Below, in pieces: positions 1-12,345 of a stretch of 12,437 bases of DNA. Source of the stretch: a virus. Location of the stretch: UHGV virus genome UHGV-0044338; one strand, given 5' to 3'. Both the position numbers and the translations under genes were made by a program. The notes beneath the pieces are model-generated. The model was not told the DNA's origin. It saw only the letters and a list, made by a program, of their open reading frames with translations, and made no database searches. The first letter of the stretch is position 1; each line of letters begins with the position of its first letter.

Positions 1-232
1 TGGCTGCGGCGATGAATTCAGCATTGGCCTGCTGTTCCATTTGGAAATCTTCATCGAAACCGCTTTCTGGATGCGCTCCTTCAATTCTGCAAATGGGAAT
101 ATATCCAGCAGCCTCGCGATGAATTAGTGCATCATCACCATCAAATCGGCCCTCTCCATATTCGAGCGACCACACACCACACGTTGCTTTCTCTGCTTTT
201 TCACGCAGTGCCTGATAGTCAATCTTGCTCAC
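1..232 (-). CDS. Hypothetical phage protein, N-terminal 77 codons (3' end beyond window)
   Basis: Open frame on minus strand from GTG at 232-230 to window edge, preceded by a consensus SD AAGGAGG (revcomp of 239-245) with 6-nt spacer. Begins VSKIDYQALREKAEKATCGVW. Overlaps the 3' end of the upstream methyltransferase gene by 14 nt in a different frame. Confidence 0.4.
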   Translation of the reverse strand, partial: MSKIDYQALREKAEKATCGVWSLEYGEGRFDGDDALIHREAAGYIPICRIEGAHPESGFDEDFQMEQQANAEFIAAA

Positions 233-713
233 TGGTTGCCTCCTTCATAAAAATAATCCAGTGGGTCTTGTCACCCTTTCCTGTTCGTTGACCGATAACA
301 GGCTTTCTGTCGGTCAGTGCCAATATCTGGCGAACAGGTATTTGCGTTTCATTCCATTTAAAAATCAGAACGCCGTGTGGCCACAACACCCGAAAGGCTT
401 CTTTAAACCCCTGCCGCAAATCATCACGCCAGGTATCTTTATTCAGCCGTCCATATTTCTTTCCCATCCAGGCGTTATCACCAACACGCTCAAGATGCGG
501 AGGGTCGAATACAACCATCGAAAAGGATGCGTCTGCAAATGGTAGTGCACGAAAATCAGCTATCAGGTCAGGACTGATAATCAGGCGTCGTCCATCACAT
601 AATGTGTGCTCTTCCTTTCTGATATCGCTAAATATCGCCCGGTCGTCATTCTTATCGAACCAGAACATGCGACTGCCACAGCACATGTCGAGGATTGCTG
701 CATTTCCAGTCAC
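219..713 (-). CDS. SAM-dependent methyltransferase, probably phage orphan DNA N6-adenine methyltransferase (DPPH catalytic motif)
   Basis: 164-aa ORF with N-terminal glycine-rich SAM-binding-like motif LDMCCGSR followed by VVFDPPH (motif IV-like). GTG start overlaps the stop of the upstream gene (GTGA). An rRNA/other methyltransferase cannot be excluded without a profile search. Confidence 0.6.
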   Translation of the reverse strand: MTGNAAILDMCCGSRMFWFDKNDDRAIFSDIRKEEHTLCDGRRLIISPDLIADFRALPFADASFSMVVFDPPHLERVGDNAWMGKKYGRLNKDTWRDDLRQGFKEAFRVLWPHGVLIFKWNETQIPVRQILALTDRKPVIGQRTGKGDKTHWIIFMKEATSEQD

Positions 714-1138
714 TGGCTGCCTCCTTTGCGAAGCTCTGCGGCGAACTCGTTAAGTGATATGTAGCAATCTCCAAATGTTAACGAACCGCTCGACTGCATA
801 TGTTCCATAGCCATCTCCACGCCCTGCGCCCGTACTTCAGCCAGAAAAGCATCGGTGGCTGGGGTTTTGATTTCGTTAAGCGCATCACTGAATCCACCAC
901 GCTCCATACCTAGCTCTGCTTCGTAATCGGCATCGAATGCAGCGTCTTTGCAGAACTTCTTCAGCTTTGCATTCTCCGCCGCCAGCGCATTAGCACGCAC
1001 CAGTTGCACTTCCAGTTGCGTTGCCAAATCGCTGATCAGCTTTGCCACACTGCGCATATCAACGGCACCACATTCTGCTTTCAGTTCCGAAGCCATCTCA
1101 TGCCCGGCGGCAACTAACCCTTTGATATTACTTTCCAT
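710..1138 (-). CDS. Hypothetical phage protein (coiled-coil rich)
   Basis: 142-aa ORF, ATG start with SD GAGGG upstream, stop overlapping the next gene start. No recognisable catalytic motif. Confidence 0.5.
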   Translation of the reverse strand: MESNIKGLVAAGHEMASELKAECGAVDMRSVAKLISDLATQLEVQLVRANALAAENAKLKKFCKDAAFDADYEAELGMERGGFSDALNEIKTPATDAFLAEVRAQGVEMAMEHMQSSGSLTFGDCYISLNEFAAELRKGGSQ

Positions 1139-1199
1139 CTTTACCCTCGCTTATCCACATAACTTATTGATTACATTGATAACTAAAAAGATCGTCGAT

Positions 1200-1544
1200 T
1201 CAGAACTCTTCGATGTTCCAGCCACCACCTGCTTTCTTTGGTTTAACCGTTACCCCGATGATTCGGAACGGATACTGATCTGCGGCGACTTTGGTTTTCA
1301 CCCTGGCGTCGTCGGTCCAGAAACCTTTCACTTCGTGCAGTTCCATCTCGCCGGTGGCGAGCATCACAGCAAAATCGGGCGTATAGAACGTGTTGTCAGC
1401 TAACCGCAGCTTGATACCCTCGAATCGATACCAGGCGATTTCCCCTGCACGTTTACGCTGCTCAAGGTGCTGGCAATACGCAGATTCTGTTTTGTTCATC
1501 TGGCCTGTTTTGAGCCGACCAAGAGCCTGTATCTGTTTTCTCAT
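1200..1544 (-). CDS. Putative PD-(D/E)xK-type nuclease (VRR-NUC-like) of the nin-like region
   Basis: 114-aa ORF containing YTPDF ... ELHEVKG, resembling a PD-(D/E)xK nuclease core. ATG start with AAGGGG SD. Assignment is motif-based only. Confidence 0.5.
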   Translation of the reverse strand: MRKQIQALGRLKTGQMNKTESAYCQHLEQRKRAGEIAWYRFEGIKLRLADNTFYTPDFAVMLATGEMELHEVKGFWTDDARVKTKVAADQYPFRIIGVTVKPKKAGGGWNIEEF

Positions 1545-1547
1545 GAT

Positions 1548-1624
1548 TTACCCCTTAGGTAATTAAAAACCACATAAGACATGAAATCAATAGACATTAG
1601 AACATTTTATTACCCATCAGGTAA
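1548..1624 (-). promoter_or_regulatory. Sigma70-type promoter (TTGATT-17-TTTAAT on minus strand) flanked by two TTACC-N5-GGTAA operator palindromes; drives the nuclease/nin-like genes
   Basis: Perfect palindromes TTACCccttaGGTAA (1548-1562) and TTACCcatcaGGTAA (1610-1624), centres 62 bp apart. -35 is revcomp of 1585-1590 and -10 is revcomp of 1562-1567; the -10 hexamer shares its last base with the downstream operator. Confidence 0.55.
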
Positions 1625-1633
1625 TCACGTGGG

Positions 1634-1660
1634 CGTAAAAAAATGCGCTATCGCGCTGGT
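1634..1660 (-). terminator. Possible weak intrinsic terminator after the P-like gene
   Basis: Minus-strand RNA reads GCGC-gata-GCGC followed by TTTTTTT. Only a 4-bp GC stem, so weak. Confidence 0.3.
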
Positions 1661-1661
1661 A

Positions 1662-2438
1662 TTACTTGATAAATCCTGCCGCCTTTCCCCGCCTGTATTC
1701 CTCCATCAGCCACTGCGCCGGTGTTATTCCCCCAAGGGTGGCAGCGTTAGGCATACACCCGAAACTTCGCCCTGGTGGATGGTAAACGTCTCTCCCTGTG
1801 TCCGGAGGCGTACTCATGGGTTCTGGCTTTGCCTGTATGCTGATCACCGGATCGGGTATCTGCTGTCCGGAAGCCACCTTTTTCGCCCAATCATCGAGCA
1901 ACCTGCGCGCGTGTTTCTCAACCTCAATCTCGCTAAGCTGGCGCTGATACATTGCACGGCGGGTATCACATACGACCCAGTACATAACCGGATGTCGCCA
2001 CGGGAATCTTTCGGGACCACCAGGATATAAACTTTTTTCCTTGCTGTACCGGTGAAACTCCGCCATCACATCGTCAATGGTGACGCCAAGAACCATCTTG
2101 CTGTCTTTGCACCACTTGATGAATTGCCCAGGCGACGGCCAGAACGGAGATTCACTGGCGCGGGCGTGGCGCATACCAGCGTTAACCTGTTCCATTGTTG
2201 TGATCCCATTCTCCAGAAAGGCAAGCATCCATTGCTTACGGAATTCATTAAGTTTGTTCTGCTCCCTTATGGTCGAAACGCTTGCAGGAAATGCAGCCTG
2301 TAACTGGACAAATAGTTCATTGAAAATTCTAGCAACCTGCTCCTTTTTGCCATTGCTGTCACGCCGCTCTTCATGCACAGCAACACCATGCTCACGTAAG
2401 CGATCGTACTCATTGAGAAGTTCTGGAGTTGATTTCAT
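1662..2438 (-). CDS. Replication protein P (lambda P-like DnaB helicase loader)
   Basis: 258-aa ORF closely resembling lambda P as I recall it, including the block WMLAFLENGITTMEQVNAGMRHAR and PFWPSPGQFIKWC. SD GAAGGGG upstream of ATG; 5' end overlaps the 3' end of the upstream initiator gene, as for lambda O-P. Confidence 0.85.
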   Translation of the reverse strand: MKSTPELLNEYDRLREHGVAVHEERRDSNGKKEQVARIFNELFVQLQAAFPASVSTIREQNKLNEFRKQWMLAFLENGITTMEQVNAGMRHARASESPFWPSPGQFIKWCKDSKMVLGVTIDDVMAEFHRYSKEKSLYPGGPERFPWRHPVMYWVVCDTRRAMYQRQLSEIEVEKHARRLLDDWAKKVASGQQIPDPVISIQAKPEPMSTPPDTGRDVYHPPGRSFGCMPNAATLGGITPAQWLMEEYRRGKAAGFIK

Positions 2439-3240
2439 CCCACACCCCTTCTATCCAGTCAGTGTTATTCCAGTCAAGCTCATCGCTTTTCCCGGCGTTT
2501 TTTGATTTTCCCCTGATATGATTTACGTGCCTGGCGAATTTTTGTTCCCACTGAACCTGCGTGAACACTTTGCCCTCAGCCATCAAGTAATCCCGGAATG
2601 CAGCAAGTTCAGCAGGTGTAAATTCCGGTTCCGGCAGGGCCGTTCCCCACAGCGCAGCACGCCGTCGAAAATCCGGCGACGGATGCCAGCCATCGGTCAT
2701 CGGAAATTTCCCGATGGGTTCACTCAGGCCATCCAGAAATTCAGGTTCAGCCACCTGCAACGGCATACCGTTCGCTTCACTGGTCGGAGCACCATCGCGC
2801 ACGTGCGCTATGTGTGGGGTTTTATATATATCTTCCTCTTCCTCTTCCTCTGGTAACTCCTTTTGTAACGCTGTTGGCGTTACTTTTTGCGTTACTCGTT
2901 TTCGATGCTCTGCCACTCTTCTATTCGTAAGTGCACGTTTTTTCGATGATTCTCCATTATGTCGCTCAAAGTTTGGAAGGATTAGTTTGCCGTCATGATA
3001 AGCAAGCCATCCGACGCTAATGAGGGCGTCAGCAAATCCTGTAATAAAAGCGAGTCTATCAAGTACTCCTTTTGTAACGCTGCCAGCGTTACCGTCTATT
3101 GTTTGCTGGTCAGCCCATGCCCATATACGAACCAGCTTTCCAAGAACAGCATCTGGATCAATACCCAGAATTTCTGCTATCTGAAAAATTTCAGGTTTAT
3201 CAGGAGTGATAACTTCAACCTTAATCCAGCTGCTTGCCAT
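2410..3240 (-). CDS. Replication initiator / replisome organiser with C-terminal DnaT-like (primosomal protein I) domain
   Basis: N-terminus MASSWIKVEV...LVRIWAWADQQ resembles phage replisome-organiser N-domains; acidic EEEEEED linker; C-terminus WHPSPDFRRRAALWGTALPEPEFTPAELAAFRDYLMAEGKVFTQVQWEQKFARH closely matches the E. coli DnaT C-terminal region as recalled. Start placed at ATG 3240-3238 (strong GAGGGG SD) rather than the ORF-track start at 3258. Confidence 0.8.
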   Translation of the reverse strand: MASSWIKVEVITPDKPEIFQIAEILGIDPDAVLGKLVRIWAWADQQTIDGNAGSVTKGVLDRLAFITGFADALISVGWLAYHDGKLILPNFERHNGESSKKRALTNRRVAEHRKRVTQKVTPTALQKELPEEEEEEDIYKTPHIAHVRDGAPTSEANGMPLQVAEPEFLDGLSEPIGKFPMTDGWHPSPDFRRRAALWGTALPEPEFTPAELAAFRDYLMAEGKVFTQVQWEQKFARHVNHIRGKSKNAGKSDELDWNNTDWIEGVWDEINSRTSQ

Positions 3241-3433
3241 AGGTTTCCCCTCTTGCACTCTTTAGTGCACAAGCAAATTCATTACGATGGCGGTTGGCGC
3301 TATTCATTGCACATTCAACACATGTTCCGTTCAGAACATACCTTTCAGAGAGATGGCCGTGACGGCACCGCTTTCCTGTGAAATAGCGATTTAACCCGGC
3401 TTTTGCGGCCTCCATTCTGGTTACTATCTTCAA
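3221..3433 (-). CDS. Small putative zinc-binding protein (CxxxH ... CxxC), function unknown; sits where cII lies in lambda
   Basis: 70-aa ORF with CRHGHLSERYVLNGTCVEC. The track start is TTG at 3433; an alternative ATG is at 3415-3413. Start uncertain. Confidence 0.4.
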   Translation of the reverse strand: MKIVTRMEAAKAGLNRYFTGKRCRHGHLSERYVLNGTCVECAMNSANRHRNEFACALKSARGETYGKQLD

Positions 3434-3545
3434 TTTTTCCGCCCCTTTTTGTTATTGATATTGGCTATTTTGCACAATTGGAAAATTTGATCAACCAGAT
3501 TTGGTTTTTTATTACCTTTGAGGTACGAATAGATATGAAAAGAAA

Positions 3546-3620
3546 CCCCCGGGGGGGGGGGGCGGGGGGGGGGGGGGGGGNNNNNNNNNNAAAAAAAAAA
3601 AAACCCCCGGGGGGGGGGGG
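3546..3620. other. Assembly artefact / unresolved gap (poly-C, poly-G, N10, poly-A, poly-C, poly-G)
   Basis: Mirrored homopolymer blocks around ten Ns. Not a biological repeat; true sequence here is unknown. Confidence 0.9.
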
Positions 3621-3645
3621 TTCTACAGAGGGTTGTAGCTGGATA

Positions 3646-3876
3646 TCATGAGTAGAAGAAGTATGCCAGTTCTGCTTTTGAGCGCAGCCATTGTCTTGTT
3701 TTACAGGCTTTAAAAAGCCCATTCATCAATACTTTACCTGGCATTTTGCGCTTACCTGTTAAGTGAGTCTGGATATAGTGACTCGTCGTTCCGGCTTCCT
3801 GTGCGAAGGCTTCACGCTCATCCGGAGTAAGTGCAAGCCAGTGCTTTTTGAAATCGAAATGTCCGTTATCGCTCAT
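3646..3876 (-). CDS. Cro-like HTH regulator (YdaS/Cro type), first gene of the leftward operon
   Basis: 76-aa ORF with HTH-like segment EREAFAQEAGTTSHYIQTHLTGKR, divergent from the repressor gene across an operator-rich intergenic region, same strand as the replication genes. Confidence 0.7.
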   Translation of the reverse strand: MSDNGHFDFKKHWLALTPDEREAFAQEAGTTSHYIQTHLTGKRKMPGKVLMNGLFKACKTRQWLRSKAELAYFFYS

Positions 3877-3901
3877 AGCTATTGCCTGATATTTATTTCA
3901 G

Positions 3902-3983
3902 ATAATAAATATTCACCCATAAGGTAACAAAAATCAAGGATAGTTACCCATGAGGTGCATTTACCTGTTGGGTAATATTGCTT
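3902..3983. promoter_or_regulatory. Divergent immunity control region with three operator-like sites and candidate divergent promoters
   Basis: Sites TcACCcataaGGTAA (3913-3927), TTACCcatgaGGTgc (3944-3958) and perfect TTACCtgttgGGTAA (3961-3975). Candidate leftward promoter TTGTTA-17-TATTAT (revcomp of 3925-3930 and 3902-3907) overlaps the first site. Candidate rightward -35 TTGCTT (3978-3983) lies 3 bp past the third site, but its -10 is poor. Confidence 0.55.
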
Positions 3984-4030
3984 TAAATTGAATCATCTTC
4001 TGATTCAGATATGAGGCGATTTTCCAGAAA

Positions 4031-4615
4031 ATGAAAAGTATCCAGGACGTCCGCAGGCAAAATCTCAACGACTTGATCGACCGTGAATTCAATGGTGTTC
4101 AGACGCGGATGGCAGAAAAACTTGGAACTCAGGCAAATCTGGTAAACCGCTGGGCTCTTGGCAAAAAGGTTATCGGCGACCAGGTTGCGCGAAAAATTGA
4201 AGCTGCCGCCAATAAACCCCGTAACTGGCTTGATATCGATCGCTCGCTTTCTCAGGAGGGGTTTCAGCCTGTCGGCCCAAGCGACATTGGTCAGCTGGCG
4301 GCTCACAACCTGGAACGCTGGATGAGCGAAAGCCGCGACCTTTCAACTCAGGGAAAACTTCACCGCGCATCCGGCGTCGCCCAGGTGACAATCAGCCGCC
4401 TGTTAAACAATGAGGTCAGCGTTTCCATTTCCACCCTGGAGAATGTTGCATCCGCATTCGGGCGTCACGGCTATGAATTACTGATTCACCCGCACGACCC
4501 TGCGACTATCAACTATGACCGCTCGCGCTACGCATTGTTACCCGAAACAGAGAAGGCAAAGATCGAAAGTTACATTGAATTTGTCATCAGCCAGAACGAA
4601 AAAAACAAACAATAA
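4031..4615 (+). CDS. Prophage repressor (CI-like) with two XRE-type HTH motifs and no S24/LexA-type peptidase domain
   Basis: 194-aa ORF. HTH-like segments QTRMAEKLGTQANLVNRWALGKK (N-terminal) and LHRASGVAQVTISRLLNNEVSVSISTLENVA (central). No G-S-M / Ser-Lys dyad C-terminal domain visible. Divergent from the cro-like gene and followed by a strong terminator. Confidence 0.7.
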   Translation: MKSIQDVRRQNLNDLIDREFNGVQTRMAEKLGTQANLVNRWALGKKVIGDQVARKIEAAANKPRNWLDIDRSLSQEGFQPVGPSDIGQLAAHNLERWMSESRDLSTQGKLHRASGVAQVTISRLLNNEVSVSISTLENVASAFGRHGYELLIHPHDPATINYDRSRYALLPETEKAKIESYIEFVISQNEKNKQ

Positions 4616-4636
4616 AATCATATTTTTCAGTAAGTA

Positions 4637-4661
4637 AGCCGCCTTCTGGCGGCTTTTTTAT
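4637..4661 (+). terminator. Rho-independent terminator downstream of the repressor gene
   Basis: AGCCGCC-ttct-GGCGGCT (7-bp stem) followed by TTTTTTATT. Confidence 0.8.
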
Positions 4662-4671
4662 TGCCTGTGCG

Positions 4672-4750
4672 ATTACCTAATGGGTAATTTTTTTAACTCA
4701 TATCTATTGACATCAAACCAAATACGCATAATTATTACCTCAACGGTAAC
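4672..4750 (+). promoter_or_regulatory. pL-like early promoter (TTGACA-17-AATTAT) flanked by two TTACC-N5-GGTAA operator palindromes
   Basis: Perfect consensus -35 TTGACA (4707-4712) with -10 candidate 4730-4735. Perfect palindromes ATTACCtaatgGGTAAT (4672-4688) and TTACCtcaacGGTAA (4735-4749), centres 62 bp apart; the -10 hexamer shares its last base with the downstream operator. Confidence 0.6.
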
Positions 4751-4768
4751 AGACCGAGGTAACAAGTT

Positions 4769-4921
4769 ATGCAGTGGAAAATCATCAACGGTTGGTACTG
4801 CGTTACTGCATGCGGATTCATGAGCTGGAAGTTCCGCACCTTACAGGAAGGCATCAAGTGGGCTTTCGTCAGCAAAGAAGCTCGCGATGTGGCCAACGAT
4901 AACGAGATATGGGAGGGCTGA
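4769..4921 (+). CDS. Small Trp-rich protein (50 aa), first ORF after the pL-like promoter
   Basis: ATG 4769 with SD GAGGT 8 nt upstream; MQWKIINGWYCVTACGFMSWKFRTLQEGIKWAFVSKEARDVANDNEIWEG; stop 4919-4921. Below the ORF-track size cutoff. Confidence 0.35.
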   Translation: MQWKIINGWYCVTACGFMSWKFRTLQEGIKWAFVSKEARDVANDNEIWEG

Positions 4922-4923
4922 TA

Positions 4924-5223
4924 ATGAACGTTAATCAGCAGAAAAATCTTCAAAAAATCATGCTGGCATTCGACAAGGACTACCGCCTGTCAGAACAGCT
5001 ATATGACCGACAAGTTGAACTGATTGAGAGCATCCGACTTCATCAACTGTCCTCAACTTTCGACGTTGTAACAGGCAAAGGCGTTCGTCAGGAAGTGCTG
5101 GAAGCTGCTAAAGACAGCCCTGAGTTCGAAGAACTGATGGATGCCTACCGGCGCGAGGCAATGGCGATTATCGCCCGCTGGGATCTGGCGGATCAGCTTG
5201 ATGGGCAGAGGGACGCGGCATGA
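4924..5223 (+). CDS. Hypothetical early protein (99 aa)
   Basis: ATG 4924 preceded by SD GGGAGGG with 6-nt spacer (preferred over the track start at 4909, which lies inside the preceding small ORF). Stop overlaps the start of the exonuclease gene (ATGA). Confidence 0.55.
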   Translation: MNVNQQKNLQKIMLAFDKDYRLSEQLYDRQVELIESIRLHQLSSTFDVVTGKGVRQEVLEAAKDSPEFEELMDAYRREAMAIIARWDLADQLDGQRDAA

Positions 5224-6119
5224 TGCGGAACGCTGGAATCATGGATAGAACAAAATACATCGGAGGAAGCGATGTTGCAGGGATTCTTGGAATTAGCCCA
5301 TGGCGCACCCCGCTTGAGGTTTATCTGGATAAGGTCCAGCCACGTGTCAAACCAGTAGACCCAAGCAAGCAGAAAGTTTTCACGCGTGGCCAGCGTATGG
5401 AGCCATACGTAATAGACCTGCTTTCTGAGGAAACAGGGATGGAAATCGTTCATCGCGGAAACCGCTATATCCACCGTGATTACGATTTTATTGCAGCTGA
5501 GATCGATGCAGAAGCAGCGTCAGGCGAGAACATTGAGATCAAAACAGTTAGTCCGTTCAAAGCCAAAGAATGGGGAGAAATCCAGACAGATGCAATTCCT
5601 GTGCATTACACGGCCCAGGCCATGCACGGGTTGATGGTTACAAACAAACAGGTATGCGTTTTCGGTGTGCTTATCGGTGGCGACGACTTCCGAATCTATC
5701 GGGTTGAGCGTGATGAAGAAACTATCCAGGCGATCTTAGAAAAAGAAATCGCTTTCTGGGACCGAGTGAAAAATCTTAACCCGCCGGAAGCTACCAGCGT
5801 AAGCGATGTATCGCTGATGTTTGAGAAAGATGCCGGGACAAGTATCGAGGTTGACGGAAAGGCACTCGCACTATTCAACGATCTACGAGACATGAAGTCA
5901 CGCAGAAAATCACTGGAAGAAGAAATAGCTATATCAGAAGAGAAGCTGAAGATGTACATGCAAGAGCACTCAGTCCTGACCCTGGACGGAAAGCCGCTCT
6001 GCACATGGAAATCTCAGATCAGCAACAGATTCGACCAGAAGCTATTCCAGTCAGTACACCCTGAGTTATTCGAAAAATTCAAAACAACAACGACACAACG
6101 CGTCTTCAGAATGAAGTAA
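5220..6119 (+). CDS. YqaJ-like phage recombination exonuclease (lambda Exo-type fold)
   Basis: 299-aa ORF with N-terminal YIGGSDVAGILGISPWRTPLEVY typical of YqaJ-type exonucleases, immediately upstream of RecT. Confidence 0.8.
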   Translation: MMRNAGIMDRTKYIGGSDVAGILGISPWRTPLEVYLDKVQPRVKPVDPSKQKVFTRGQRMEPYVIDLLSEETGMEIVHRGNRYIHRDYDFIAAEIDAEAASGENIEIKTVSPFKAKEWGEIQTDAIPVHYTAQAMHGLMVTNKQVCVFGVLIGGDDFRIYRVERDEETIQAILEKEIAFWDRVKNLNPPEATSVSDVSLMFEKDAGTSIEVDGKALALFNDLRDMKSRRKSLEEEIAISEEKLKMYMQEHSVLTLDGKPLCTWKSQISNRFDQKLFQSVHPELFEKFKTTTTQRVFRMK

Positions 6120-6128
6120 GGAGAAAAA

Positions 6129-7151
6129 ATGTCTATCAATGCACTTAAGGCAGCGGCTACCGGTAACCAAGTTGCACATCATAATGAGAAACCAACAACT
6201 CTGGCCGGACTTCTGGCAGACCCAAAAATAAAAGCCCAGATGGCTTTGGCACTTCCAAAGCACATGACAGCAGACCGTCTGGCGCGCATAGCAACCACAG
6301 AGATCCGAAAGGTTCCAAAACTTGCATCATGCGACCAAGCCAGCTTCCTGGGGGCAATTATGCAATGTGCCCAATTGGGTCTTGAACCAGGTGGAGCTCT
6401 TGGACACGCTTACCTGATACCGTTCGACAAACGCCAGAAAGTAAATGGAAGATGGGAAACCGTATCTACAGAAGCACAGCTGATTATCGGCTATCGCGGA
6501 ATGATTGACCTTGCCCGCCGCTCTGGGCAGATCCTGAGTATCTCGGCTCGTACCGTACATACAAACGACAAATTCAGCTACTCATACGGCCTGGAAGAAA
6601 CGCTCGAGCATTTACCTTGCGAAACAGGTGACCGCGGAGAATTAACGCACGTTTACGCCGTTGCACGACTGAAAGATGGCGGAGTCCAATTTGAAGTTAT
6701 GAGCCGGGCAGACGTTGAGAAAGTTCGTGCACTGAGCAAAGCCGGTAGCAGTGGCCCATGGGTTGATCACTTCGATGAGATGGCTAAAAAAACAGTAATT
6801 CGCCGACTGTTCAAATATCTTCCTGTTTCTATTGAGATGCAGAAGGCTGTTGTTATGGATGAGCGCGCTGAAGCTGGACTTAGCCAAGATAACGCAGCTG
6901 TTATCACTGGTGAATATTCCGTAGTTGACGATGAGCGTCAACACCTATCGCCAATTTCAGATTCAGAACGAGAAGAAGCTCGAGAATATATCATCGCGAT
7001 ACTTAATAGCCTGGATCCATCTGCTGAAGATGCAAAAACGATGTTCAAGCGCGCTGAAAATGAAATTAACACCATGGCTGAAAAGCTCGGTGATGAATAT
7101 CACCAAAAATTCATGATGACGCTTAACGATATGCGTCCAGAATTCGAGTAA
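6129..7151 (+). CDS. recT: RecT-family single-strand annealing recombinase
   Basis: 340-aa ORF with RecT-family hallmarks as recalled (e.g. LIPF ... GYRG segment), strong SD AAGGAG 6 nt before ATG, paired with an upstream exonuclease gene. Confidence 0.85.
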   Translation: MSINALKAAATGNQVAHHNEKPTTLAGLLADPKIKAQMALALPKHMTADRLARIATTEIRKVPKLASCDQASFLGAIMQCAQLGLEPGGALGHAYLIPFDKRQKVNGRWETVSTEAQLIIGYRGMIDLARRSGQILSISARTVHTNDKFSYSYGLEETLEHLPCETGDRGELTHVYAVARLKDGGVQFEVMSRADVEKVRALSKAGSSGPWVDHFDEMAKKTVIRRLFKYLPVSIEMQKAVVMDERAEAGLSQDNAAVITGEYSVVDDERQHLSPISDSEREEAREYIIAILNSLDPSAEDAKTMFKRAENEINTMAEKLGDEYHQKFMMTLNDMRPEFE

Positions 7152-7200
7152 CCACCACCGCGGCGCCACGCGCGCCGCACTGCAACCAAGAGAGGTATTT

Positions 7201-7449
7201 ATGAAAGGTGCATTAGGTAAGAAGGAACTCCTGGCGGTGGTGCCACTGTCATGGAGCACTATCGACCGCATGGAGCGCACAGGGGAATTTCCTAAGCGCT
7301 GGTATATCACTGACAAACGCTGCGCATGGAACCGTGATGAAGTTGAGCGTTGGCTTGATGAACGTCAGGCAGCAAGCCCGGCAGAGTTCCAGGGTAAAAA
7401 GCCTCCTGTTCAGCAACGTGTATATCGTCCTGTGAGCAACGCTGCATGA
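7201..7449 (+). CDS. AlpA-family HTH regulator / putative excisionase
   Basis: 82-aa ORF; LLAVVPLSWSTIDRMERTGEFPKRWYITDKRCAWNRDEVERWLDER matches the AlpA/Xis-type winged-helix pattern; SD AGAGG upstream. Confidence 0.7.
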   Translation: MKGALGKKELLAVVPLSWSTIDRMERTGEFPKRWYITDKRCAWNRDEVERWLDERQAASPAEFQGKKPPVQQRVYRPVSNAA

Positions 7450-7558
7450 GTGTGCTGCTAAGGCACTGGAGCAAATGGTCAGGATGGTACTTATTCCTGG
7501 CCTCTGTTTCAGCATGGCTTTATCTGCTGGCATTAATTTTCAGAGAGGGTTGGATTAA

Positions 7559-7858
7559 GTGAGAAAGTTAAGCCGACTTGAAAAATATCACATGAACAAG
7601 GTTTCAATGCGCAGTCCGTCAAAGATTGTCGCCGTTACTCCTGCGGCGATAGAGATCGAAAAACGCGCGATTGAAAGAGAGAAAAAAGGGCAGTTCCGCA
7701 TTGCCGCCCACCTTTGGCTTCAGTGTATGGATGTTGCTTCTGGTGATGTTGAGCGTGCAAGGATCGCGGTTCGCAGGGACCAATGTATCACAAAAGGTAA
7801 CGGCCTTCGCCGTGGCGACTATAGCGGTATAGGATGTTGCGGGGTAGTTTATGACTAA
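7559..7858 (+). CDS. Hypothetical protein; start uncertain (GTG 7559, ATG 7592 or ATG 7604)
   Basis: ORF whose stop overlaps the start of the MT-A70 methyltransferase gene by 8 nt. No recognisable motif. Confidence 0.45.
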   Translation: MRKLSRLEKYHMNKVSMRSPSKIVAVTPAAIEIEKRAIEREKKGQFRIAAHLWLQCMDVASGDVERARIAVRRDQCITKGNGLRRGDYSGIGCCGVVYD

Positions 7859-8501
7859 GAAATACACACTAATCTATGCAGATCCACCCTGGGTATACCG
7901 GGACAAAGCCGCAGATGGTAATCGCGGTGCCGGTTTTAAATATCCGGTTATGAGTGTGATGGATATCTGCCGCCTTCCTGTGTGGGATTTGGCCGATGAA
8001 AACTGTCTGTTGGCAATGTGGTGGGTGCCAACACAACCACTCGAAGCGCTAAAAGTTGTTGAAGCCTGGGGATTCCGTCTGATGACCATGAAGGGCTTCA
8101 CGTGGATAAAATGTGGTAGTCGACAACCAGATAAACTGGTTATGGGTATGGGACACATGACTCGCGCCAATAGTGAAGATTGCCTGTTTGCAGTAAAGGG
8201 AAAACTACCTCCGCGCATTAATGCAGGGATCGTTCAGTCATTTACCGCACCGCGGCTTGAGCATTCAAGAAAACCAGATGTCGTTCGTGAAAAACTTGTG
8301 CAATTGTTAGGCGATGTTTCTCGCATTGAACTGTTCGCCCGCCAGTCGTCTCATGGCTTCGATGTTTGGGGTAATCAGTGCAAAGACCCGGCGGTGCAAC
8401 TACACCCAGGATACGCGTTGGATATTGGCGGATTAACAAATGCATTCAGCAATTCTCCGCTTTCACCAACAGACAACCAAGGCCGGGAGCGTGCAGCATG
8501 A
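7851..8501 (+). CDS. MT-A70-family DNA N6-adenine methyltransferase (orphan, phage-type)
   Basis: 216-aa ORF with LIYADPPW catalytic motif near the N-terminus and the later ELFAR ... DVWGN block typical of MT-A70 enzymes. Confidence 0.8.
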
Positions 8502-9157
8502 ACCTATATCAACGCATCAATGGCGCTGACTGGTGCAATATCTTCGTCGTCGGCGATCTGCATGGGTGCTACACGCTGCTGATGAACGAACTCGACAAAG
8601 TTTCATTCGACCCGGCGCGCGATTTGCTTATTTCCGTTGGTGACCTTGTTGACCGCGGCGCTGAAAACGTCGAATGCCTAGATTTGATTACTATGCCGTG
8701 GTTCCGAGCTGTTCGTGGCAACCATGAGCAGATGATGCTGGATGCACTGGTCAACGGCGGAAATTTCGGACATTGGATGTCAAACGGCGGTGGATGGTGG
8801 CACCAACTTGATTCTGAGCAGGATGTGCAACTCAAATACCTTCTGCCAAAGATTACCAACCTCCCGATGATTATCGAACTGGTTACCGGCAATAAGAAGG
8901 TCGTCATCTGCCACGCAGACTACCCGCACAACGAATACGCATTCAATAAGCCAGTACCAGAAGAAATGGTGATATGGAATCGTGAGCGGGTTAGCGACGC
9001 GCAGGACGGTATTGTCTCGGAGATAACCGGTGCCGATTTGTTCATCTTCGGTCATACGCCAGCACATCACCCACTGGTGTATGCAAACCAGATGTACATC
9101 GACACAGGGGCAGTGTTCTGCGGAAATCTGACGCTTACCAAAGTCCAAGAAAGATAG
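8498..9157 (+). CDS. Serine/threonine protein phosphatase, lambda PPase-like (calcineurin-type metallophosphoesterase)
   Basis: Metallophosphatase motifs GDLHG, GDLVDRG and GNHE; overall resemblance to lambda ORF221 phosphatase as recalled. Start at ATG 8498 ([12 protein letters not shown]), overlapping the methyltransferase stop (ATGA); SD GGGAG upstream. Confidence 0.85.
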
Positions 9158-9159
9158 AA

Positions 9160-10332
9160 TTATTTATTACTGTCTTCCATCCACTTCTCAAACTTCGACG
9201 GGGAGAACGGAATCAGATCCGTATGCTCCCCGTTAATCCAGGAATCAATCATATCGGCCCACTGCTGCAACATGTAGGCGCGCTGTCTGGCGTATTCCGC
9301 TTTGTTATATACGGCGCGCACACCTTTCTGCTCATGTGCCAGAGCCTTTTCAATCCAGTCTGAAGGATAACCAGCCTCATGCAACAACGTACTGGCTGTA
9401 CGGCGCATATCGTGTACGGTGAAGTCCTGAATATGCTCACCATCTTCATTTATTATTTTCACCGTTCTGTCGATCAGAGAGTTCAGCGCGGCATTAGATA
9501 ATGGCTTCCGGAAGTTGTAACGACCAGGAACCAGATATTCACTTCCACCAGCGCACATCTGCAACCCGACCAATATATCCTGTGCCTGTTTAGGCAGGTA
9601 AATAACGTGCGCCCGGCTTCCCTTCATGCGGTCTGAAGGAATTGTCCATGTCCATTTTTTAAAATCTATTTCGTCCCACGTTGCATTGGTGAATTCGCCT
9701 TTACGAACCATAGTGATAAGCACCAGCTTTAAAGCCATTTTCATAGTACCCATAGCACCAATGGCATCCAGCGTGCGGAAGAACAGGCCAATTTCTTCTG
9801 GTGTCAGTGTTCGCTCTCGTGGTTTAAATATGGCGATAGACGAAGGTTTAATGTCAGCCGCAGGATTAAATAAACCATGACCACGGTCATTGGCGTGACG
9901 GTATACGCTGCTGATGATCTCCCTGGCCTGTACTGCTGTTGCACGGCCACCGCGTTCGACAATCCGGTCACACAAATCACGAACCATCGATGTGGTAATT
10001 TCAGCCATCATTTTGTTGCCAAGAACCGGAAGTATGTCACGGTCGATCACCGCCTGTTTCATTGCGCGGGTACTGTCAGCCAGGATGACGTGTTTCATAT
10101 AACTGTCGGTATGTACCGCAAACGTCTCGGCACCACGAATCTTTTTGATACCGTCACGTTTAGCCGCGGCCGGTGACTGGCCTGCTTTAAGCAGTTTCTT
10201 TGCAGCAATCAGTTCTTCCCGCGCTTCTGCCAGGCTGATACCGTCACGCCCATACTGCCCTATTACCAGTGTTTCGCGGCGACCGTTGATACGGTAGTCA
10301 TAGCGAAACGAGACCGTGCCTGACGTAAGCAC
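9160..10332 (-). CDS. Tyrosine recombinase / phage integrase (IntS/P4-like); frame as given starts at GTG 10332, but the conserved N-terminus extends upstream to GTG 10416 and is interrupted by TAA at 10396-10398
   Basis: 390-aa ORF with N-terminal arm-binding-like region (FRYDYRINGRRETL) and C-terminal catalytic region ending RAVYNKAEYARQRAYMLQQWADMID, collinear with E. coli IntS-type integrases as recalled. Upstream in-frame sequence encodes (M)LTDTK*KTLKPQDKLYKVSDRDGLYVAV. Confidence 0.85.
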   Translation of the reverse strand: MLTSGTVSFRYDYRINGRRETLVIGQYGRDGISLAEAREELIAAKKLLKAGQSPAAAKRDGIKKIRGAETFAVHTDSYMKHVILADSTRAMKQAVIDRDILPVLGNKMMAEITTSMVRDLCDRIVERGGRATAVQAREIISSVYRHANDRGHGLFNPAADIKPSSIAIFKPRERTLTPEEIGLFFRTLDAIGAMGTMKMALKLVLITMVRKGEFTNATWDEIDFKKWTWTIPSDRMKGSRAHVIYLPKQAQDILVGLQMCAGGSEYLVPGRYNFRKPLSNAALNSLIDRTVKIINEDGEHIQDFTVHDMRRTASTLLHEAGYPSDWIEKALAHEQKGVRAVYNKAEYARQRAYMLQQWADMIDSWINGEHTDLIPFSPSKFEKWMEDSNK

Positions 10333-10444
10333 AGCTACATACAGCCCGTCACGATCGGAGACCTTGTACAGTTTGTCCTGCGGCTTGAGGGTTTTTTATT
10401 TTGTATCGGTAAGCACAATTCACCCGTATAGAAACCATTTTCAT

Positions 10445-10480
10445 GACGGTATGAGAGTATACCTTTAAGGTAATACCGTC
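10445..10480. other. Nested inverted repeats in the int-guaA spacer; candidate attachment-site or recombinase-binding region
   Basis: GACGGTA (10445-10451) and TACCGTC (10474-10480) flank TATACCtttaaGGTAAT (10458-10474). No tRNA gene is present here. Confidence 0.25.
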
Positions 10481-10530
10481 ACCTGTACCGCCGAAAAATA
10501 TGGTGTAGAGTGAATAGAAATGAATACATA

Positions 10531-10560
10531 AAAACAAAAACCCTCTGTAAAAACAGAGGG
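10531..10560 (-). terminator. Rho-independent terminator of guaA (guaBA operon)
   Basis: Minus-strand RNA: CCCTCTG-ttttta-CAGAGGG followed by TTTTTGTTTTT, 50-80 nt after the guaA stop. Confidence 0.8.
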
Positions 10561-10608
10561 TTAAATTAGTATCTGAATAGGAATGAGTTGCTATGAGTTA
10601 GCTGTTAA

Positions 10609-12186
10609 TCATTCCCACTCAATAGTCGCTGGCGGCTTGCCGCTGATGTCATACACCACGCGGGAAATACCGTTCACTTCATTGATAATACGGTTGGAAA
10701 CGCGGCCGAGGAAGTCGTACGGCAGATGTGCCCAGTGTGCGGTCATAAAGTCGATGGTTTCGACAGCACGCAGAGAGACAACCCAGTCATACTTACGACC
10801 ATCGCCCATTACGCCAACGGAACGTACTGGCAGGAAGACGGTGAACGCCTGGCTGACTTTGTCGTACAGGTCCGCTTTACGCAGTTCTTCAATGAAGATG
10901 GCGTCAGCACGGCGCAGCAGGTCACAATACTCTTTCTTCACTTCTCCCAGAACACGAACGCCAAGGCCTGGTCCCGGGAACGGGTGACGGTACAACATGT
11001 CATACGGTAGGCCCAGCTCCAGACCAATCTTACGCACTTCGTCTTTGAACAGCTCTTTCAGCGGTTCAACCAGGCCCATCTTCATCTCTTTCGGCAGGCC
11101 ACCCACGTTGTGGTGAGATTTGATGACGTGTGCTTTACCGGTTGCAGAAGCAGCAGATTCGATAACGTCAGGGTAGATGGTGCCCTGCGCCAGCCACTTC
11201 ACGTCTTCCAGTTTCAGCGCTTCTTCATCGAATACTTCAACGAAAACGCGACCGATAATTTTACGTTTTGCTTCCGGATCGTTTTCGCCAGCCAGCGCTG
11301 ACAAGAAGCGATCTTCTGCCGGTACGTGAACAATGTTCAGACCAAAGTGATCGCCAAACATATCCAGAACCTGCTCTGCTTCGTTGAGACGCAGCAGGCC
11401 GTTGTCGACGAATACGCAAGTCAGGTTTTTACCGATAGCGCGGTGCAACAGCATTGCGGTAACGGAGGAATCCACGCCACCAGAGAGGCCGAGGATGACT
11501 TTATCGTCGCCCACTTGCTCGCGGATGCGGGCTACAGCGTCGTCGATAATTTTCGCTGGCGTCCACAGGGCTTCACACTGGCAGATATCACGCACAAAAC
11601 GCTCCAGCATGCGCATACCCTGGCGGGTGTGAGTCACTTCCGGGTGGAACTGTACGCCATAGAAGCGTTTTTCTTCGTTGGCCATGATGGCAAACGGGCA
11701 GCTTTCGGTGCTGGCTACGGTGACGAAGTCGGACGGGATAGCGGTAACTTTATCGCCGTGGCTCATCCAGACGTCCAGCAGCGGTTTACCATCTGCGGTC
11801 AGCGCATCTTCGATACCGCGAACCAGTGCGCTGTCGTTTACGACTTCAACCTGCGCGTAGCCAAATTCACGTTCGTTAGAGGCTTCAACGTGACCGCCCA
11901 ACTGCATTGCCATGGTCTGCATGCCATAGCAAACGCCGAATACCGGTACGCCTGCTTCAAAGACATACTGCGGCGCACGCGGGCTGTTTTCTTCGGTGGT
12001 GCTTTCCGGGCCGCCGGAAAGAATAATGCCGCTTGGATTGAAGTCACGAATTTGTGCTTCTGTCACATCCCACGCCCACAGTTCGCAGTAAACACCCAGC
12101 TCACGCACGCGGCGCGCAACTAGTTGAGTGTACTGAGAACCGAAGTCCAGAATGAGGATGCGATGCTTATGAATGTTTTCCGTCAT
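10609..12186 (-). CDS. guaA: GMP synthase (glutamine-hydrolysing)
   Basis: 525-aa ORF; N-terminal glutamine amidotransferase domain and ATP-pyrophosphatase motif SGGVDSS; matches E. coli GuaA as recalled along its full length. Confidence 0.97.
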
Positions 12187-12242: not shown

Positions 12243-12345
12243 NNNNNNNNNNNNNNNNNNNNNNNNNNNNNNNNNNNNNNNNNNNNNNNNAAAAAAAAAA
12301 AAAAAAAAAAAAAAAAGAAGGGGGCGGGGGGGGGGGGGGGGGGGG
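12243..12345. other. Assembly artefact / unresolved gap (N48, poly-A, poly-G) inside the guaB-guaA intergenic region
   Basis: 48 Ns followed by long A and G homopolymers; native intergenic sequence is not represented. Confidence 0.9.

Follow-up and report, generated by a model that had tools for sequence, protein, structure and literature searches.

We know of no biological role for NinI, the protein phosphatase of phage lambda. A gene of this type closes a block of three overlapping genes at positions 7559-9157 of a stretch of 12,437 nucleotides (nt) from UHGV virus genome UHGV-0044338, which was analysed as a whole and is referred to below as the window; the other two genes of the block code for a PerC-like protein and an MT-A70 adenine methyltransferase (methylase). 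For both of these families, related systems have been described. In a REBASE-based listing, the methylase M.EcoGV appears as a Dam homologue with GATC specificity, and the nearest studied homologue of the window enzyme, when overexpressed, was reported to be a GATC methylase (PMC6602927). Gong, Chakraborty and Koudelka found the enzyme from a Shiga toxin (Stx) phage to be weakly active alone and to form a 1:1 complex with PNB-2, the product of an overlapping upstream gene; this complex prefers 16S rRNA, the enzyme raises spontaneous prophage induction, and its last 27 residues were suggested to bind PNB-2 (PMC10810198). In their turn, PerC and PchABC activate LEE1, an operon of the locus of enterocyte effacement (LEE), and alter the expression of fim and nitrate genes (PMC5293775).

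Genomic setting of the block

Judged from its sequence, the window covers the integrase end of an Escherichia coli prophage that resembles phiV10 and epsilon15 (Uetakevirus) and is inserted in the 3' end of guaA, and the block itself represents the last genes of the early operon of this common prophage. The window has nucleotide identity and gene order in common with the type phages, as well as the integration at the 3' end of guaA. In a megablast search of phage genomes, 17 phiV10-like (Uetakevirus) phage records were 97-98% identical to the window across 7450-8503, while two Escherichia phages, vB_EcoP_PAS61 (PAS61, genus Uetakevirus) and BP9, matched the entire 1711-nt block with 98% identity. 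A single gene order is common to PAS61, phiV10, the two Salmonella phages SPC32N and epsilon15, and a phage of Klebsiella, as their annotated maps show: a repressor, small genes, an exonuclease with RecT, an AlpA-type excisionase, a 38-residue membrane peptide, a PerC-like protein, an MT-A70 methylase, one or two small genes that vary, and an integrase in convergent orientation. The Klebsiella relative is likewise flanked by a GMP synthase gene. Among 5426 complete E. coli genomes, the block was matched in 620, and its phosphatase version was present, at about 98% identity, in 143, including APEC O1. The genes and their arrangement are therefore already known, as they are named in the public records of PAS61 and about 140 complete E. 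coli genomes. The three genes are as follows.

7559..7858, plus strand: divergent PerC-family small helical protein, 99 residues (start GTG 7559; alternatives ATG 7592 and ATG 7607)
7851..8501, plus strand: orphan MT-A70 (class beta) N6-adenine methyltransferase, 216 residues, ATG start (PF05063)
8498..9157, plus strand: lambda NinI-type Mn-dependent Ser/Thr/Tyr protein phosphatase, 219 residues, ATG start (PDB 1G5B, phrog_246)

An earlier reading of the window, made from the letters alone and called here the sequence-only reading, had noticed that these three open reading frames (ORFs) overlap end to start, and we found the three ORFs and both overlaps in the sequence. The TAA of the first ORF (7856-7858) sits 8 nt past the ATG at 7851, and ATGA at 8498-8501 forms a stop/start overlap. 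Shine-Dalgarno-like purine runs precede two of the starts by 7-9 nt (GCGGGG before 7851 and GGGAG before 8498). Of the 80 nearest IMG/VR contigs, nearly all keep the 8-nt overlap between the PerC stop and the methylase ATG. The block had also been placed between an excisionase and the integrase; this position is correct, but a gene for a 38-residue membrane peptide, lying between the excisionase and the 99-residue protein, had been missed. The region upstream of the block contains the following features.

4707..4735, plus strand: candidate PL-like sigma-70 promoter TTGACA-17-AATTAT, a consensus match, downstream of the repressor terminator at 4636-4655
4909-5223, plus strand: phrog_856 protein (E = 1.9e-55)
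5220-6119, plus strand: YqaJ-type exonuclease (Pfam YqaJ, E = 2.7e-23)
6129-7151, plus strand: RecT annealase (Pfam RecT, E = 4.4e-57)
7201..7449, plus strand: AlpA-family excisionase/regulator (Pfam Phage_AlpA, 24.4 bits, cutoff 21; phrog_66, E = 3.2e-16)
7446..7562, plus strand: 38-residue membrane peptide MSVLLRHWSKWSGWYLFLASVSAWLYLLALIFREGWIK (phrog_17484, E = 4.7e-27 over 1-38 of 38)

The AlpA-family protein is a homologue of phiV10p36 and epsilon15 gp33, and the membrane peptide, whose gene overlaps each of its neighbours by 4 nt, is a homologue of phiV10p35 and epsilon15 gp32. Along the plus-strand operon 4909-9157, the gaps at successive junctions are -4, +9, +49, -4, -4, -8 and -4 nt, so that five of the seven junctions are overlaps. 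With respect to the proposal of a co-expressed unit, the common orientation and tight packing therefore stand, as does a probable co-expression, but a separate unit of three genes does not, since equal packing continues upstream to 4909. A consensus scan revealed 4707-4735 as the only plus-strand promoter-like site upstream of the block, and no promoter-like or plus-strand terminator-like site between 4740 and 9157. We also considered the block as a moron, that is, an autonomous cassette expressed in lysogeny, and rejected this, as no promoter or terminator of its own flanks the block and the phosphatase stop lies 2 nt from the integrase stop. As for the overlaps, at 36 other MT-A70 loci from different species unrelated upstream genes overlap the methylase start by 1-4 nt, among them NinB-like, replication, HNH, DnaC-like, DUF1317 and DndB-like genes. 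Since unrelated genes overlap methylase starts too, such an overlap is ordinary phage packing and by itself says little about shared function.

Overall, we would put at roughly 0.6 the probability that the block serves as the integrase-proximal end of an early-left (PL-type) operon with the expression and protein roles outlined here. After induction or infection, one transcript would run from about 4735 through 9157 and into the convergent integrase gene. Its genes would be translated in series, and the stop/start overlaps may give roughly matched amounts of the products. The methylase would methylate adenine at N6, likely within GATC or a similar sequence, in replicating phage and host DNA, as its homologues suggest, and this methylation would keep the phage DNA fully modified. 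The PerC-like protein may be a small helical adaptor or a regulator of the methylase or of its expression, and would not be a virulence activator of the LEE type. The phosphatase is predicted to be an active but dispensable accessory enzyme.

The MT-A70 methylase

The assignment of the second gene to the MT-A70 family, made in the sequence-only reading, is borne out by the match to PF05063 (E = 3.8e-22; 79.5 bits against a cutoff of 23.9), which covers profile positions 1-172 of 172. Catalytic motif IV is present as YADPPW at residues 9-14 (DPPW at 11-14), and the protein ends in a variable C-terminal tail (188-216). The nearest solved structures in the PDB are those of Tetrahymena MTA1 (2.5e-13) and human METTL3 (4e-6), while the PADLOC model MTase_II, which describes Type II methylases, matched with 8.5e-77. 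The neighbours of the methylase gene code for the PerC-like protein, the phosphatase and the integrase, and no ORF for a nuclease partner was found in the window, in agreement with what had been claimed. Since no endonuclease gene is adjacent, the methylase is an orphan and not a part of a Type II restriction-modification system.

In a tblastn search, residues 1-187 of the window methylase were 82-83% identical to the enzyme of Stx2a-converting phages, which belongs to the M.EcoGV/M.EcoPA8orf6770P clade. For comparison, we used Stx phage P14437, where a gene for a protein of 118 residues overlaps the methylase start by 4 nt. This protein has no PerC signature, and hhalign gave a probability of 0.07% for its alignment to the PerC-like profile; at this value, homology between the 99-residue protein and PNB-2 was rejected. 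We also asked if the methylase tail co-varies with the upstream partner. In a survey built from the methylase scan with one genome per species (40 loci), the tails were short, variable and mostly ended in AA before the overlapping start, with no partner-specific pattern, and this idea was dropped.

The target of the methylase is probably DNA, at GATC or a similar site, by analogy with its relatives. We favour it because GATC is the sole sequence-level specificity reported in the clade and because relatives carry a DndB-like DNA-modification gene in the same module. Such DndB-like genes (Pfam PF14072, PADLOC DndB) were observed in relatives from E. coli, Salmonella and Citrobacter (contigs L061, 2898-4001; L004, 2437-3504; L013, 2937-4004), where they lie between the PerC-like gene and MT-A70 in the absence of other dnd genes, with stops and starts again overlapping.

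The PerC-like protein and its relatives beside other methylases

The first protein of the block had been labelled hypothetical, and this label does not hold: a profile search assigns it to Pfam PerC (PF06069) with 30.1 bits against a cutoff of 22.6, although the match (E = 6e-7) spans positions 5-50 only of the 90 in the profile. The protein also matches phrog_868 ("transcriptional activator") over 1-99 of 99 residues with E = 5.7e-62, and its RefSeq name in E. coli genomes is "PerC family transcriptional regulator". The choice of the start codon is ambiguous, as PAS61 and PHROG 868 use GTG 7559, phiV10 uses ATG 7592, and the proteins of 83 residues in NCBI correspond to ATG 7607. PchA from E. 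coli O157 Sakai is 40% identical over 40 residues (hhalign probability 94.5%), and this similarity is confined to the core motif KG-x-YRRAA-x-W...RR-x-C; PchA lacks the N-terminal 35 residues as well as the C-terminal YSGI...GVVYD. An AlphaFold2 model of the protein has four helices and a mean pLDDT (predicted local distance difference test) of 71, with three core helices at 83-88; the conserved tail 86-99 is disordered. A Foldseek search of PDB with this model gave nothing significant, the best hits being MIT-type three-helix bundles (E = 0.74), and a sequence search of PDB gave no match. Profile searches for wider PerC relatives found nothing beyond the families already aligned.

PerC-like genes were found directly upstream of MT-A70 genes, with overlaps of 4-10 nt, in two species of Buttiauxella and in Dryocola, Lonsdalea and Acerihabitans; in another Acerihabitans genome, one small ORF lies between the two. 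The Pfam PerC score was over the threshold in four of five tested loci. The proteins of Buttiauxella and Dryocola are fusions, with a winged-helix-like domain N-terminal to the PerC-like one. The gene order in these lambdoid prophages is CII-like, replication protein, PerC-like, methylase, LexA-like and RusA, which places the PerC-like gene in the replication/nin region, an operon context distinct from the early-left operon of the window. Some of the further homologues of the fused and short PerC-like forms are again located upstream of MT-A70. Other downstream genes were seen at one locus each: a fusion of C5 (PF00145) and D12 (PF02086) methylases; Dam (PF05869) followed by a C5 methylase; a protein combining phosphoadenosine phosphosulfate (PAPS)-reductase and D12; and a PAPS-reductase followed by Dam and then by a C5 methylase. 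When directly upstream of a methylase gene, PerC-like genes usually overlap it by 4 nt, and they take this upstream position in at least two operon contexts that are unrelated, namely the early-left operon of Uetakeviruses and the replication/nin region of lambdoid prophages. Since the lambdoid examples have a backbone in common, they do not count as independent events. In tblastn searches of isolated phages, the PerC-like protein of Acerihabitans gave one marginal match, to Enterobacter phage Tyrion (two records, E = 0.01), and the winged-helix-PerC fusion of Dryocola gave no match.

Two side observations were made on these lambdoid prophages. In those of several Enterobacterales (L125-L133, L137-L138, L022, L023 and L025), the PerC-like gene always follows a replication gene (PF13730/Phg_2220_C) and codes either for 74-82 residues or, with the N-terminal winged-helix-like domain, for 147-152 residues; behind it lies a cassette for DNA modification, whose content varies (MT-A70, Dam, D12, C5 or PAPS-reductase). 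Prophages L129 and L130, which carry the winged-helix-PerC fusion and MT-A70, also possess, just after the lysis gene, a gene with an Acb2/Tad1-hairpin domain (6214-6444), which belongs to a family of sponges directed against Thoeris and the cyclic oligonucleotide-based antiphage signalling system (CBASS).

It is tempting to suppose that PerC-like proteins are dedicated partners or controllers of the orphan DNA-modification enzymes of phages, comparable to PNB-2 or to the C proteins of restriction-modification systems, and not regulators of virulence in their own right, but we regard this as a doubtful generalization. Other arrangements are found among relatives. The PerC-like gene and MT-A70 are separated by DUF1317 and/or a DndB-like gene for 355-367 residues in some relatives from E. 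coli and in SPN1S-type phages of Salmonella; in Klebsiella and Enterobacter relatives DUF1317 lies between the two, and in epsilon15 the short gp30.

The phosphatase and the variable slot

A lambda-PPase-like identity had been suggested for the third protein, and the comparison with the lambda enzyme (PDB 1G5B) agrees: E = 1.5e-100 over residues 1-217, which makes the protein a full-length orthologue of NinI (orf221). The phosphatase motifs GDLHG, GDLVDRG, GNHE, ICHAD and GHTP are all conserved relative to 1G5B, and the match to phrog_246 has E = 1.1e-107. At the nucleotide level, the gene is 79% identical to ninI of the lambdoid phages HK225 and phi80. The gene occupies a slot behind the methylase with a sharp left edge.

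8494..8501, plus strand: left junction of the slot, CAGCATGA, containing the ATGA stop/start overlap

In an alignment, the window, phiV10 and a third variant of the slot (contig L048) agree up to this octamer and diverge beyond it. In HK225, the boundary between ninE and ninI has the same octamer, and it is there that the similarity of HK225 to the window starts. As the octamer is common to all of the junctions, the cassette must have been exchanged exactly at the stop/start overlap, and the phosphatase gene was joined at this site in a way that recreated the ATGA. The right junction of the slot falls within the final few codons of the integrase gene.

To describe the contents of the slot, we used the 80 closest IMG/VR contigs from a scan of viral contigs with the methylase, a scan that returned only near-identical phiV10-like contigs. 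DUF1382, as in phiV10, filled the slot in 49 of the 80 contigs and the phosphatase in 26; four carried a gene for 82 residues together with an AntA-like gene, and one was unresolved. The L048 variant (4648-5871) belongs to the third type, its 82-residue gene being of no assigned family and its second gene coding for an AntA/AntB-type antirepressor-like protein of 216 residues. In epsilon15, the slot is occupied by a serotype-conversion gene. We read the slot as a hot spot for recombination, whose phosphatase gene came from a lambdoid phage, out of the nin region. The label of "cargo", which had been given to all three genes, consequently fits the phosphatase alone. It does not fit the PerC-like and MT-A70 genes: they occur in the same order in every Uetakevirus examined, from Escherichia, Salmonella, Klebsiella and Enterobacter, and therefore belong to the conserved backbone.

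Other features of the window

Downstream of the block, and at the opposite end of the window, the following features were found.

9160..10416, minus strand: convergent P4-type tyrosine integrase (Pfam Phage_integrase, Phage_int_M, Arm-DNA-bind_3)
10539-10562, minus strand: phage-supplied terminator-like hairpin for guaA (terminator scan)
10609..10623: prophage/host junction; the match to PAS61 runs 15 nt into the 3' end of guaA
10609-12186, minus strand: guaA, the ORF at the window end
219..713, minus strand: second orphan DNA methyltransferase, DPPH motif, motif I before motif IV (phrog_954, E = 7.6e-89)

Identity with PAS61 ends 15 nt into guaA, which marks this as the integration site; the last codons of guaA and the terminator come from the prophage. 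The att core is seen to rebuild the final guaA codons (10539-10623 region). The integrase gene has an in-frame TAA at codon 7 (10396-10398), which leaves an open frame at 9160-10332 only, with a restart at GTG 10332 (390 residues). Compared with intact relatives of 416 residues, one T is lost from TT and one C is gained in CC at 10390-10402 (codons 6-9). The same change occurs in IMG/VR contig L045, whose methylase is 100% identical to that of the window. Either this is a sequencing error in homopolymers, or the TAA is a genuine inactivating mutation, which would strand the prophage.

Two further regions look like assembly or scaffolding artefacts and not like biology. One of them (3546-3620), between the Cro-like and CII-like genes, consists of runs of C, G, N (ten), A, C and G; the other (12243-12345), just upstream of guaA, of 48 N followed by poly-A and poly-G. 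In the putative prophage repressor (gene at 4031-4615), residues 21-61 gave a YdaS-like match and residues 106-147 a match to HTH_3, which suggests that the protein has a pair of helix-turn-helix units, a feature already noted in phiV10p40. Scans of the window with Rfam and for tRNA genes gave no match.

The methyltransferase at 219-713 had been counted together with the block. It is real, with PADLOC matches to MTase_II (4.1e-74) and oMTase (5.9e-50), but it is not a part of the block, being located in the replication-side early operon. Its gene overlaps the next one (710-1138) by 4 nt, and its methylase family differs from MT-A70.

Weighing the alternative readings

Several observations weigh against the roles that we propose for the end of the early-left operon. 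The close homologue from the Stx phage showed weak activity on DNA and preferred 16S rRNA when together with PNB-2 (PMC10810198). At the same time, phmmer found no PNB-2 match in the window, and past residue 187 the methylase tails of the window and the Stx phage are unrelated, so that the tail proposed to dock PNB-2 differs. By these comparisons, the window methylase keeps the catalytic core but neither the PNB-2 partner nor the proposed docking tail. In the prophage part of the window (1-10540), GATC is mildly depleted, with 33 sites where 45-55 would be expected from the composition in di- and trinucleotides; we considered this depletion as a clue to the specificity and set it aside as too weak. 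The site at 4707-4735 is a consensus match alone, and its promoter function is putative. Finally, the link between PerC-like proteins and methylases may be positional only. DUF1317 and/or a DndB-like gene intervenes in E. coli and Salmonella relatives, Yersinia prophages of the same backbone have MT-A70 without PerC, and a degraded Sodalis prophage remnant has PerC without a methylase. In O157 Sakai, pchA lies beside lysis genes and a copy of IS629 with no methylase nearby, and the link is therefore not family-wide.

The sequence-only reading interpreted the three genes as anti-defence cargo, with the methylase shielding DNA from restriction and the phosphatase reversing kinase-based defence signalling. 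Such a role would be in line with an orphan methylase that has no nuclease in the window and matches a Type II model, with the second orphan methylase at 219-713, with the location of the phosphatase in a hypervariable slot typical of accessory genes, and with the DndB-like DNA-modification gene that relatives insert at the same place; early expression would suit counter-defence as well. However, PerC and the methylase are conserved backbone, the consensus scan found neither a promoter nor a terminator belonging to the block, and the grouping of the trio is not conserved, the phosphatase being present in just 26 of the 80 closest relatives. Moreover, a GATC-specific methylase would duplicate the host Dam in E. 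coli, and the phosphatase has no PADLOC match. In the literature on anti-defence, we found no such role for NinI-type enzymes, the search bringing up only unrelated ones (a Macro-domain ADP-ribose-1-phosphate (ADPR-1P) phosphatase and a phosphoesterase from a mycobacteriophage that has DNA as its substrate). Protection of DNA from restriction by the methylase is an assumption, and we consider the whole anti-defence scenario unlikely. Even less probable, in our opinion, is that the PerC-like protein and the methylase form a two-subunit RNA methyltransferase like M.EcoPA8orf6770P-PNB-2, directed to 16S rRNA and modulating translation and spontaneous induction. The 82-83% identity of the catalytic cores and a small gene overlapping the methylase start in both systems (by 4 nt in P14437 and by 8 nt here) speak for it, as do the 1:1 complex, the partner-dependent preference for 16S rRNA and the effect on induction reported for the Stx system (PMC10810198); the modelled helical bundle of the PerC-like protein with its conserved disordered tail is also what one would expect of a protein-binding adaptor. 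Yet the PerC-like profile has no similarity to PNB-2 (hhalign 0.07%), the tail implicated in PNB-2 binding is different here, and DUF1317 or DndB genes split the pair in close relatives. PerC-like genes also precede unrelated methylase families, which argues against a specific fit of subunits. Besides, by the authors' own statement, the RNA target in the Stx system is based on assays of S-adenosylmethionine (SAM) consumption without a mapped base (PMC10810198). We give equally little credence to the view of the PerC-like protein as a transcriptional activator of the Pch type, by which host genes are reprogrammed in lysogenic conversion, the methylase and the phosphatase being unrelated neighbours. 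Membership in the PerC family by Pfam, the core motif in common with PchA, the public annotation as a transcriptional activator, and the published effects of PerC and PchABC on LEE1, fim and nitrate genes (PMC5293775) agree with this view. Against it, the similarity to PchA covers just about 45 residues, the gene is situated within a lytic early operon without a promoter of its own, unlike pchA near the lysis genes, and Foldseek detected no DNA-binding fold in the AlphaFold2 model. In addition, these prophages are common in non-LEE E. coli (e.g., APEC O1), Salmonella and Klebsiella. Having compared these scenarios, we prefer to see the block as the end of the early-left operon, with a DNA methylase, a small adaptor or regulator and an exchangeable phosphatase.

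Significance of the locus

The only studied member of the MT-A70 clade is a matter of dispute, described on the one hand as a DNA methylase acting on GATC and on the other as a partner-dependent 16S rRNA methylase that raises induction of the Stx prophage. A natural variant that differs in its upstream partner and in its C-terminal tail is available in the phiV10 clade and could help to settle what determines the substrate. The recurrent placement of PerC-like genes before unrelated phage methylases is a testable lead on the mechanism of PerC and Pch proteins; if true, a partnership of this kind would hint at how these proteins act. A direct test of it seems worthwhile because partner-dependence has been published for a close MT-A70 homologue. 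The slot between the methylase and the integrase, for its part, represents a clean case of cassette exchange at a stop/start overlap.

Comparison with known systems

The early-left module of Uetakeviruses (phiV10 p36-p31, epsilon15 gp33-int, PAS61) is the nearest known system, with the same gene order and the same guaA-adjacent integrase as in the window. The differences concern the slot, which holds DUF1382 in phiV10 and the serotype-conversion gene in epsilon15, the short gp30 that separates PerC from the methylase in epsilon15, and the window integrase, which stops at codon 7. M.EcoGV and M.EcoPA8orf6770P are likewise MT-A70 enzymes with an N-terminal DPPW, encoded behind a small overlapping gene in an early operon of a prophage, close to its integrase end. 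Unlike the M.EcoPA8orf6770P-PNB-2 pair, the window has an upstream protein of the PerC family, not homologous to the 118-residue PNB-2 equivalent, and the last 29 residues of its methylase differ.

PerC of enteropathogenic E. coli and PchA/B/C of enterohaemorrhagic E. coli (PF06069) have the two-helix core motif in common with the window protein, and both are found on mobile elements. In contrast to PchA, the window protein has an extra N-terminus of 35 residues, a different C-terminus and a location in an early lytic operon; the setting of pchA in Sakai, beside lysis genes and IS629 and away from any methylase, is also unlike that of the window. Lastly, lambda NinI and the window phosphatase share all of the metal-binding and catalytic motifs. 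The normal site of ninI is the nin region of the early-right operon, as in HK225, where it lies between ninE and HNH/RusA, whereas in this podovirus-type prophage it belongs to the early-left operon and lies between the methylase and the integrase.

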